A stretch of DNA of 64,000 bases from a bacterium (lineage in GTDB: Bacteria; Bacteroidota; Ignavibacteria; UBA10030): positions 64,001 through 128,000 of the forward strand of contig JAZDJN010000016.1 of assembly GCA_043803945.1 (NCBI GenBank). The letters are read 5' to 3'. Position 1 is the first letter of the stretch. Each line of letters starts with the position of its first letter. Both the position numbers and the translations under genes were made by a program. Below the pieces are notes generated by a model, which did no database searches, had not been told where the DNA came from, and saw nothing but the letters and a program-made list of their open reading frames with translations. This document shows positions 31,759-64,000 of the stretch, in pieces.

Positions 31759-32031
31759 GTCACTATATTTTTTTGAGATTCGGTTTTCTCCTCGCTATAG
31801 TATTTCAACATCATCATAGAAAGTCTGCGGTATTGCCTCTCTCATAAGGGGCTTTCCATTCATGGGTATGTGATAATGTTGAATCACGCTCATTACATCT
31901 TCTCGATGAAAGGAGATCTCTTCCTTTCATACGTGATGAGAGATTTTAATACACATACTTCAAGAGAAATCACGCATTTATTACAACTGGATCATAAGGA
32001 ATCACTCTTGAAGGAAGAAACGCTTCCATAA
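31759..32031 (+). pseudogene. REP-associated tyrosine transposase (RAYT/Y1) remnant
   Basis: YFNIIIESLRYC..KGLSIHGYVIMLNHAHYIFS...LSYVMRDFNTHTSREI, with HUH motif; in-frame stops at 31774 and 31798; adjacent REP-like hairpin. Confidence 0.75.
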
Positions 32032-61740: not shown

Positions 61741-62070
61741 CTATCGCACCCACTAAGAACCCAGAATAGAACACCCGCCTGCCCGCCACCGCGGGCATGC
61801 ATCGGGCAGGCAGATTACACAAGAATAGCACTGATAGCCACAGATAAGGCCTTATAAATAATTCTGTTGACCATTTTTGCTTTCAAGAACCATAGTATCA
61901 GTGACAATCTTGTGTTTTTCTGCGTCCTCAGTGTTCCATCTTTTTCTCACTGAGCAATCGCAAACGACAACAAAAAGATCCTCCAGCTATCTTTTCAAGA
62001 GACAACAAGTTGCCCAAACCCCGGCAGTTTGTTACATTGTGTTTAAGAGTCTCGAGGGATCAGCATTTCT

Positions 62071-62754
62071 ATGGCGACACAGTTCACACTATTTGGAGTG
62101 TACCATTGTTTCTTCATCGCACTGATCCTGTTTGTTCCGGCCCTTCTCACCAAATTATCTCTTGGATATACTTCACGTGTTAAGCATTTTCGATATTCTC
62201 TTGGTGGTGTCATCCTCGTCAATGAGCTTGCATGGTATTTCTATGTGTTTATTCAGGGATGGTTCAATTTTCCATACATGCTCCCAATTCATCTCTGCGA
62301 CATCGTCCTTTGGCTTACCGTTTATACATGCTTCACCAATAAATCCTGGTCGTTCGACATTATTTATTATTGGGGACTCGCGGGAACGAGCATGGCGGTG
62401 CTCACACCGGATATAACCTCTTCGGCATTTTCTTATCTCACACTGCGTTTCTTTCTTGCTCACGGTGGAATTCTGATCGCAATTCTCTTTCTTCTCTGGA
62501 GTAAGCAATCGCGTCCCCGGAAAGGGTCGCAGTGGAGAGCCTTCGGTTATCTTAATCTCTATGCACTTTTCATCGCCCTGTTTAATTATCTCTTTAGCGC
62601 AAACTATTTTTATCTCTGTGAAAAGCCTGCGGAATCATCTCTACTCGATTATTTAGGGCCATGGCCGATTTACATCTTTGCGGGCGAAGTTCTGGCGCTT
62701 GGATTCTTCTGGTTACTTGCGCTACCGTTTCGAAATCACAATAAACATTCATAG
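62071..62754 (+). CDS. YwaF/TIGR02206 membrane protein
   Basis: LPIHLCD, LTPD, FFLAH, NYFYL..KP...SLLDYLGPWP.Y. Confidence 0.85.
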   Translation: MATQFTLFGVYHCFFIALILFVPALLTKLSLGYTSRVKHFRYSLGGVILVNELAWYFYVFIQGWFNFPYMLPIHLCDIVLWLTVYTCFTNKSWSFDIIYYWGLAGTSMAVLTPDITSSAFSYLTLRFFLAHGGILIAILFLLWSKQSRPRKGSQWRAFGYLNLYALFIALFNYLFSANYFYLCEKPAESSLLDYLGPWPIYIFAGEVLALGFFWLLALPFRNHNKHS

Positions 62755-62849
62755 ACGATTCCACCCCCTTTCATCTACTAACAGGAAAAAAATAATAGAA
62801 GTGGCAGGAACGGAATTATCGTTGAATGATACTTCGTCCTTGTCTCGCC

Positions 62850-63036
62850 TGACTCATCCCCTAGCCCCTTCTCTTAATCAAGAGAAGGGGGATAGGGATC
62901 TCACTTTTTAAAAAGGCTTCACTCCCCCTTCTCTAATTTTTTTTAGAGAATGGGGTAAGGCCCGCTCCGCCGACCTGTACGCCGAAGTTCGAACAACAAA
63001 GGTGGAAGCAGTGGCGAGGCGGAGGGGGATGAGTCA
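62850..63036. repeat. Palindromic element with nested hairpins (CTCATCCCC...CCCTTCTCT...AGAGAAGGGG...GGGGATGAG)
   Basis: Terminal ctgactcatcccct / aggggatgagtcag with internal hairpins. Confidence 0.65.
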
Positions 63037-63066
63037 GAACAAAAATGCGGAACACAATCAAATCAC

Positions 63067-63355
63067 TATGTAGATTCCCGAAATCAGAAAGATTTCGGGA
63101 ATCTAACGAAAGATTTATTTTAAGTCCTGAACAAGACGAAAACCGAGGCCGAGGAGCGGGCTGTCTGGATAGTTCCTATTACGGTTAGCGGTTCGGAAGG
63201 GCATTATTTGGATTCCCCTGTATGTAGATTCCCGAAATCAGAAAGATTTCGGGAATCTAGCAAAAGATTTATTTTAAGTCCTGAACAAGACGAAAACCGA
63301 GGCAGTCGTTCTGGTCGACTGGAAAGCACTTATTACGGAGAGCCGAGCGGCAGTC
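63067..63355 (-). repeat. Two tandem 154-bp units, each an orphan DGR-type variable region + conserved 3' end + 15-bp hairpin
   Basis: Units encode FRTANRNRNYPDSPLLGLGFRLVQDLK* (stop 63115-17) and CRSALRNKCFPVDQNDCLGFRLVQDLK* (stop 63269-71); the 81-nt 3' part differs at 2 positions. Confidence 0.85.
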
Positions 63356-63424
63356 CCGCCAAAAAGCGTGGCGAGACTGCCGGACAATAAAAAAAAGTGT
63401 AAAGGATAAAAGGAAAAAGGGTAA

Positions 63425-64000
63425 CTAAAGAGTTCTCGAAAGACGAAAACCGTTATTGTTGGTCCTGTTGGGCGCGTAGTCTTTAATGCGAAACGCAACA
63501 CGACAACCGTCGGCGTCGCCGCCCCACGACCCGCCGCGAACAACCCGGGCCGAGCCACTGCTTGGTCCGGATGGATTTATCTGAGAACCGGAAGAGTACG
63601 CTCCATACCAATCCTGACACCATTCCCATACATGACCACTCATATCATAGATACCAAGCTCATTTGCAGTTTTTGCTCCGACTGTGTGTGTTGTGTTACC
63701 CGAATTTGAAGAAGACCACGCTACTGTATTTACTGTACGACCGCCGCTATAGGTAAACCCCTGACCTTTATTTCCACCCCGCGCTGCGAACTCCCACTCA
63801 GCTTCAGTTGGCAATCGGTATTTATTTGTGTTCTCCTTTTGATTGAGCTTCTGAATGAACTCCTGCACATCATTCCAGCTCACTTGTTCCACAGGCCGAT
63901 TATCTCCTTTGAAGTTGCTTGGGTTGTTACCCATTATGGTCTGCCATTGTGCTTGCGTCACCTCATACTTGCCAATGTAGAACGGCTTATTTATCGTTAC
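63425..64000 (-). CDS. FGE-sulfatase/SUMF1 (C-type lectin fold) protein, 5'-truncated by window; probable DGR target
   Basis: FYIGKYEVTQ, PVEQVSW, RLPTEAEWEFAARGG, YDMSGHVWEWC, VRGGSW...CRVAFR...NNNGFRL; frame open to the window end. Confidence 0.9.
   Translation of the reverse strand, partial: VTINKPFYIGKYEVTQAQWQTIMGNNPSNFKGDNRPVEQVSWNDVQEFIQKLNQKENTNKYRLPTEAEWEFAARGGNKGQGFTYSGGRTVNTVAWSSSNSGNTTHTVGAKTANELGIYDMSGHVWEWCQDWYGAYSSGSQINPSGPSSGSARVVRGGSWGGDADGCRVAFRIKDYAPNRTNNNGFRLSRTL

Follow-up and report, generated by a model that had tools for sequence, protein, structure and literature searches.

The closest described counterparts of the locus analysed here are degenerate DGR loci. In Treponema denticola, truncated target genes of the FGE type have been reported, together with isolates that carry targets but lack the RT and the template repeat (TR) (PMC4891356), and one variable region (VR) of Pelodictyon phaeoclathratiforme lies outside any coding region (PMC3521204). 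A survey judged more than half of its candidate DGRs degenerate and discarded them (PMC5758913). In Thiohalocapsa, degenerate DGR loci have been shaped by transposons and MITE-like repeats, and caspase-type effector domains are among those found in or beside DGR target proteins (PMC10907252). The degenerate targets in Treponema denticola, Pelodictyon and Thiohalocapsa resemble the two units described below in several respects: the VR is of the FGE or C-type-lectin (CLec) type, the variation is of the A-site type, there is no intact gene, and an RT and template of their own are lacking. Mobile repeats also take part in the rearrangement of these loci, as they do here. Our units differ in being only 24-29 codons long, in forming a tandem pair, in carrying a REP hairpin each, and in having no template in the genome.

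REP-associated tyrosine transposases (RAYTs) belong to the IS200/IS605 Y1 superfamily, and their REPs usually number tens to hundreds per genome. The repeats at our locus share with such systems a palindrome of about 35 nt with a conserved TAG head, copies that flank a Y1_Tnp gene, the extragenic position of all copies, and a hairpin arm that is kept beside orthologous RAYTs in other genomes. They differ in numbering only five copies, in the association with a gene that scores below the cut-off of the NCBIfam RAYT model, and in the co-duplication of about 85 nt of foreign VR sequence.

In the target of Bordetella phage BPP-1, reportedly worked out by Guo and colleagues in 2008 and 2011, the VR is followed by the IMH and then by a hairpin or cruciform. 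Our units have a similar arrangement, with a conserved VR 3' end followed by a strong hairpin; however, the hairpin here is a transposase-linked repeat, and the VRs of the genome's own DGR on contig C98 have no comparable hairpin. An IMH/IMH* pair, moreover, can be defined only with a template, which is absent here. Silent-cassette systems such as pilE/pilS and vlsE, and orphan rhs/cdiA-CT modules, consist of 3' gene fragments that lack a promoter and are stacked downstream of a complete gene. The units are likewise promoterless 3' fragments and follow a complete member of their own gene family, but they share no conserved recombination blocks with that gene, are accompanied by no immunity genes, number only two, and have no counterpart arrangement in relatives. 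A full-text search of one literature collection found no paper in which DGRs and REP-associated tyrosine transposases appear together, and none in which the term 'orphan VR' is used with DGRs.

Two truncated variable regions behind a caspase and FGE gene

The window, which is the whole 64,000-nt stretch that was analysed, corresponds to positions 64001-128000 of contig C16 in an assembly of 5.54 Mb with 118 contigs and 100% marker completeness. Both units sit in a 670-nt gap between two convergent genes (Table 1). The upstream gene, which encodes a 605-aa protein, extends past the end of the window to C16:129242 and closes with ...NRTNNNGFRLSRTL and a stop codon; its product matches PF00656 at the N-terminus (141.8 bits) and PF03781 at the C-terminus (171.8 bits). 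Read along the minus strand, unit B comes first and is followed by a REP, the RAYT stump, unit A, and a second REP; each unit comprises the last 24-29 codons of an FGE/C-type-lectin VR, a stop codon, and a perfect 15-bp hairpin. Translation in the FGE frame gives RDCRSALRNKCFPVDQNDCLGFRLVQDLK and (MPFRT)ANRNRNYPDSPLLGLGFRLVQDLK, both ending at a stop codon and both following the pattern CRSAxR...P...GFRLVQDLK-stop.

Table 1. Features in and around the gap that holds the two units (window positions; a dot marks features given without a strand).
Feature	Position	Strand	Basis
TMEM164-family membrane protein gene, convergent neighbour	62071-62754	+	family assignment
MITE-like repeat, unrelated to the units	62849..63037	.	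perfect 13-nt inverted repeat at its ends
REP-A, hairpin and loop as REP-B	63071..63105	.	repeat search and fold
Unit A, second orphan VR 3' fragment	63115..63189	-	ANRNRNYPDSPLLGLGFRLVQDLK and stop
RAYT-gene-start remnant, 16 nt	63189..63204	-	identical to the first 16 nt (MPFRT...) of the C18 RAYT gene
REP-B, perfect 15-bp stem and 5-nt loop, flanks TTTGC (left) and ACATA (right)	63225..63259	.	repeat search and fold
Unit B, orphan FGE/CLec variable-region 3' fragment	63269..63355	-	DCRSALRNKCFPVDQNDCLGFRLVQDLK and stop
Unique 14-nt inverted repeat, 93% complementary, 7-nt loop	63348..63382	.	repeat search and folds
605-aa Peptidase_C14 (caspase) and FGE-sulfatase/CLec gene, 3' part	63425..64000	-	ORF and Pfam

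The 24-nt motif singled out in the earlier note occurs exactly twice in the genome, at a distance of 154 nt, which bears out its description of two tandem minus-strand VR tails behind the FGE gene. The repeat copies (63067-63199 and 63221-63353) are 133 nt each, share 84% identity at the same spacing of 154 nt, and differ by 21 mismatches in a blastn alignment. These mismatches are distributed unevenly, with four in the first ~14 nt, 15 in the next 48 nt, and two in the last 82 nt. Within the 48-nt core, which runs from the common GCT codon to CTC-GGT, all 15 differences fall at codon positions 1-2 in what is an unpolarised comparison of two copies only; at 13 of them one copy has an A, and the remaining two sit at the first position of NNC codons. 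Our alignment thereby reproduced the counts first reported, and it also recovered the near-invariant 3' stretch, in which the two differences are spread over 82 columns that include the perfect 15-bp stem and the 5-nt loop. By our own arithmetic, the chance that 15 of 15 differences avoid third positions is (2/3)^15 (p ~0.002), and the chance that at least 13 of 15 involve A is p ~0.004 at p = 0.5, taking the six unordered base pairs as equally likely. Neither copy has A at all of the variable sites, so that neither unit templated the other; judged from their sequences, both look like variable regions of one lost template.

The open frames that hold the units are short (51 codons for unit B and 40 codons for the other). 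Unit B has no start codon and no FGE domain upstream, and no intact CLec/FGE-fold ORF was found around either unit, nor an upstream FGE domain. A Pfam search with the ORFs across the units (47-aa and 60-aa frames on the plus strand and a 94-aa frame on the minus strand) returned no match. No sigma-70-like promoter was predicted at the locus, and Rfam gave no matches at E values up to 1 in window positions 62000-64000. Two terminator-like sites were predicted; both are weak and both lie within the VR sequences. The truncation points of the two units lie no more than about 15-35 nt apart in the VR, a near coincidence that is not predicted by independent random deletions and that hints at a site-specific process.

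Two further structures lie in the gap. The inverted repeat just upstream of unit B has no second copy in the genome, and its downstream arm consists of the first FGE-like codons of unit B (D-C-R). This strong hairpin has no T-run after it and was not called in the terminator scan; it may represent a fold-back junction, or resemble a terminator by coincidence. On the other side of the units, the MITE-like repeat is bounded by the terminal repeats CTGACTCATCCCC and GGGGATGAGTCAG and contains internal CCCCTTCTCT hairpins. Copies with 80-88% identity are found on at least five other contigs (C10, C81, C15, C5, and C21), and shorter pieces elsewhere, which shows that the intergenic region gathers mobile repeats.

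REP hairpins and a transposase stump

The 15-bp hairpin has five copies in the genome, two of them behind the units and three flanking a single Y1_Tnp/RAYT gene on contig C18; the same hairpin and loop as in REP-B are found 3' of that gene. A search with the hairpin pattern gave 17 matches, of which ten are the arms of the five hairpins and seven are isolated chance matches that are not palindromes. The C18 gene is IS200-like, with a Pfam Y1_Tnp match of 32.5 bits against a cut-off of 23, and the model nearest to it is NF047646 (REP-associated tyrosine transposase), with a score of 70.5 bits that lies below the cut-off of 80. Comparison with RAYT orthologs revealed the arm motif beside the gene in two of the nine loci inspected, out of 80 kept. 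These two are the closest orthologs (73% and 63% identity), both from Bacteroidota MAGs, and one of them (L093) also starts with MPFRT. More distant orthologs are accompanied by palindromes of a different sequence. The hairpin was also found in a genome of the same order.

The hairpin behind the units is therefore a REP of a RAYT family and not a DGR feature. The earlier note had presented it as a conserved downstream element of a DGR while cautioning that it also resembled REP-type repeats. The caution proved correct and the assignment to a DGR did not hold, since the other three copies flank the C18 RAYT gene. A role as the DGR cruciform was rejected, as both C98 VRs are without a comparable hairpin. 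Dispersal of this REP is low, with only five hairpins at two loci, short of a high copy number. TTTGC precedes three of the five copies, and REP insertion may be site-specific.

The 16-nt remnant of a RAYT gene start lies between the units. When up to one mismatch is allowed, the sequence has two matches in the genome, one between the units and one at the C18 RAYT start. The remnant is preceded by AGGGGA, a motif that resembles a ribosome-binding site, and it is fused in frame to unit A; the resulting micro-ORF of 29 codons (63115-63204) is probably meaningless. Identity to the start of the C18 gene, in a position after AGGGGA, indicates that a RAYT gene once stood here and was deleted down to 16 nt. 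The succession of unit B, REP, RAYT stump, unit A, and REP is thus the usual REP-RAYT-REP order, and about 85 nt of VR tail were copied together with the REP.

At the C18 locus itself (C18:82790-82930; L010 1461-1581), 32 nt upstream of the middle REP are repeated 89 nt downstream with 84% identity. This flank duplication hints that local duplications around these REP palindromes recur. A Y1_Tnp (IS200-like) fragment was also noted elsewhere in the window, on the plus strand at 31819-31980 (C16:95819-95980), within an open frame of 76 codons. Y1_Tnp matches number 12 in the whole genome, which means that several RAYT/IS200-like lineages are present side by side.

The DGR of the genome and the search for a template

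The single complete DGR of the genome (C98:45545-50200) consists of a caspase+FGE target, an Avd (NF033474, 103.4 bits against a cut-off of 80), an RT, a template repeat (TR98), and a second caspase+FGE target. TR98 and VR1 differ by 25 mismatches, 22 of them at template A's, while TR98 and VR2 differ by 26, with 25 at template A's. Each VR is interrupted by a stop in frame (TGA, TAA) and, compared with the template, contains a 1-nt insertion; either the VRs belong to inactivated targets, or the stops and indels are consensus artefacts of a variable population. An orphan FGE C-terminal fragment was also found at C27:48215-48313, in an intergenic 33-codon frame that ends in ...DDCRITKRFNREPAALLFRYGFRCALSK and a stop, with no REP or DGR nearby. 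Together with the stops and indels of the two C98 VRs, this orphan tail suggests that decay of the family is common in this genome.

When the units were laid codon for codon on TR98, A was found at 12 of the 15 variable sites and at 11 of the 30 invariant ones, and the variable codons of the units proved to be those that are AAY in TR98, a genuine template of the same family. The tail of the units, GFRLVQDLK-stop followed by CTTTTGCT, resembles the tails of the C98 VRs (GFRCSLDIK-stop and GFRCSLDFR-stop, followed by CTTTTTGCT). This agreement at the A sites, in the tail, and in the 3' flank suggests that the units descend from a paralog of the C98 targets. As in a relic-type DGR variable region, variation lies at the first and second positions of A-templated codons, third positions are invariant, and the flank is nearly so. 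TR98 itself was tried as the template of the units and rejected, because many of its differences from them fall outside A positions and its 3' end is not theirs.

The RT and Avd of the C98 DGR are consequently present in the genome but paired with a template that does not match the units. Three other RTs were found as RVT_1 matches: one of a group II intron, one in an RT-Cas1 fusion, and one that is Drt5-like. Contig C64, on which an RT lies near an FGE gene, was considered as a second DGR and discarded, as its RT is Drt5-like and no TR/VR pair was found. The RT-Cas1 fusion is a protein of 689 aa (C7:27343-29412) that joins a group-II-like RT domain to Cas1. We also observed a 3'-flank motif, CTTT(T)ACACTT, about 25-35 nt past the stop codon and common to four FGE-family genes: the 605-aa gene (63380-63420, minus strand), those of both C98 VRs, and a C98 FGE gene ending near C98:63152. 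This motif may be a family-specific terminator or an element of the DGR target site.

No cognate template was found in the 5.5-Mb assembly with the exact motif, with blastn at word size 7, or with degenerate patterns that allowed up to eight substitutions. The earlier note had proposed a whole-genome search for a repeat that differs only at A positions; there is no third copy of the motif, and TR98 differs at non-A sites. An exact 21-mer gave one match in public genome contigs and one in metagenome contigs, both of them chance matches inside unrelated genes, and none in viral contigs. The degenerate core pattern had no matches in genome contigs or in viral contigs, and the back-translated GFRLVQDLK-stop pattern had none in genome contigs; metagenome contigs were scanned with the exact 21-mer only. 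In 60 related genomes, none of the same genus, the VR part had no match, while hairpin-level matches were present in two and a chance-level flank match in one.

Since no template exists anywhere in the genome, a DGR origin is drawn from the differences between the two copies only, and a footprint of DGR adenine mutagenesis is, indirectly, the best reading of these differences. That footprint had been put forward as established. Its shape stands, and 12 of the 15 variable sites fall on A's of TR98; the template repeat that should accompany it was not found. With no cognate template, the reading of the units as part of an active DGR fails by the criterion that the note itself had set, and the reading as relics remains.

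The units could still be live acceptors of a remote DGR if the cognate template and RT were carried by a phage, a plasmid, or a contig left out of the assembly or the bin, and kept rewriting these non-coding stubs. The division of the assembly into 118 contigs leaves room for this, as mobile DGRs are often absent from binned genomes; in addition, both units retain at least 70 nt of VR, and their 3' 82 nt, with the putative homing end, are nearly identical. We nevertheless regard live acceptors as unlikely. A template was not found in 5.54 Mb at 100% marker completeness, no related sequence came to light in genome or viral contigs, and the exact 21-mer had no true match in metagenome contigs. 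Furthermore, the sole DGR RT of the genome serves a different template, the three others are of non-DGR types, and the stubs code for nothing that is open to selection.

There is a slim chance that the detached modules of VR 3' end and REP hairpin have been, or still are, substrates for mutagenic homing after the loss of the gene. The REP palindrome would then replace the DGR cruciform, and the RAYT/REP machinery would duplicate the modules. If true, this would amount to a functional liaison of a domesticated transposase repeat with a DGR, giving rise to diversified non-coding decoys or spare gene ends.

Origin and significance of the units

In our view both units are probably dead relics of a DGR target, left over from the 3' end of a gene paralogous to the caspase+FGE targets on C98, and presumably lack a function today. 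The lost target gene would have ended in GFRLVQDLK and a stop codon, with CTTTTGCT as the start of a 3' flank common to the C98 targets. This fits the first of two suggestions made in the earlier note, namely that the cassettes are remnants of displaced target-gene ends.

The most likely order of events begins with a target paralog that would have been located behind the 605-aa gene. A REP hairpin of the RAYT family would have inserted in its conserved 3' flank, about 15 nt past its stop codon, with the RAYT gene alongside, and a local duplication around the RAYT/REP element may then have doubled the segment made up of the VR 3' end, the stop codon, and the REP. A DGR whose template has since been lost would have rewritten the A-templated codons in at least one copy; such rewriting would result in the 15 differences confined to codon positions 1-2 and in a flank that is nearly unchanged. 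Later deletions would have taken the gene body or bodies and all of the RAYT gene but 16 nt. In an alternative order, two intact paralogs could each have gained a REP at the same target site and been truncated later. REPs may insert site-specifically, so that two paralogs could acquire them independently, which weakens the case for duplication followed by diversification.

The differences between the units might also owe nothing to a DGR. The units would then be composite copies of a REP-linked repeat, or two paralog tails, that diverged in the ordinary way or under selection while still coding. The absence of a template, the identity of the hairpin as a REP, and the RAYT remnant between the units agree with such an origin, as does the comparable duplication upstream of a REP at the C18 RAYT locus (32 nt, 84%, 89 nt apart). 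It is nonetheless very unlikely, because ordinary divergence would not yield 0 of 15 third-position changes next to a flank with two changes in 82 nt. The link of 13 of 15 differences to A is not expected either, and the variable codons correspond to AAY codons of TR98, a true template from this family.

The second suggestion, a silent library of pre-diversified C-termini that are recombined into the expressed upstream gene, has in its favour that the units follow immediately on a complete gene with this fold and share its orientation. A 13-nt motif, CGGTTTTCGTCTT, occurs in this gene and in both units, with spacings of 153 and 154 nt. Around the motif, however, the resemblance ends: upstream of it the gene and unit B agree at 25 of 60 positions, which is the level of paralogs, and downstream at 23 of 82, against a shuffle mean of 21.6 (sd 3.8), which is chance. 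A three-unit array, with the gene tail in register at 153 nt, was rejected on this chance-level downstream identity, and the equal spacing is therefore most likely a coincidence. There are no flanking blocks of homology for gene conversion, the gene and the units having only the 13 contiguous nt in common; the gene tail, GFRLSRTL-stop, is unlike that of the units; there are only two units; and the only trace of a recombinase is the 16-nt transposase stump. Nor were the cassette arrays that the note had proposed to count in related genomes encountered: the VR part is absent from all 60 genomes, and no stacked orphan tails were seen at the 77 related FGE loci or at the 80 RAYT loci. In the 77 loci with relatives of the 605-aa protein, the sole FGE-like tail in a short frame is an N-rich template repeat, and the RAYT loci yielded no such tail. 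We hence consider a silent library highly improbable.

An assembly artefact, in which two population alleles of one hypervariable VR were joined, is conceivable for a MAG-like genome of 118 contigs, given that VRs are heterogeneous in populations and that the stops and 1-nt indels of both C98 VRs could be consensus artefacts of this sort, but it is extremely unlikely because the longest exact stretch common to the units is ~40 nt and because the units are separated by a spacer of unique sequence that includes the RAYT start and each have a different unique flank, an arrangement that a collapsed bubble would not produce.

With the units read as relics of a DGR target, the locus presents a relic rather than a mechanism, of a kind that joins the degenerate DGR loci already described, and no new mechanism follows from it unless the stubs are still being diversified. 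It also advises caution in annotation, as a conserved hairpin behind a VR does not have to be the element that a DGR recognises; in this case it is a REP. For DGR targets that have lost their retroelement, the units illustrate that short orphan tails retain the A-site mutational scar. This scar is recognisable from two copies without a template, which helps to annotate DGR graveyards in MAGs. The co-duplication of a VR tail and a REP at a RAYT stump is, in turn, a small example of how mobile repeats remodel families of DGR targets.
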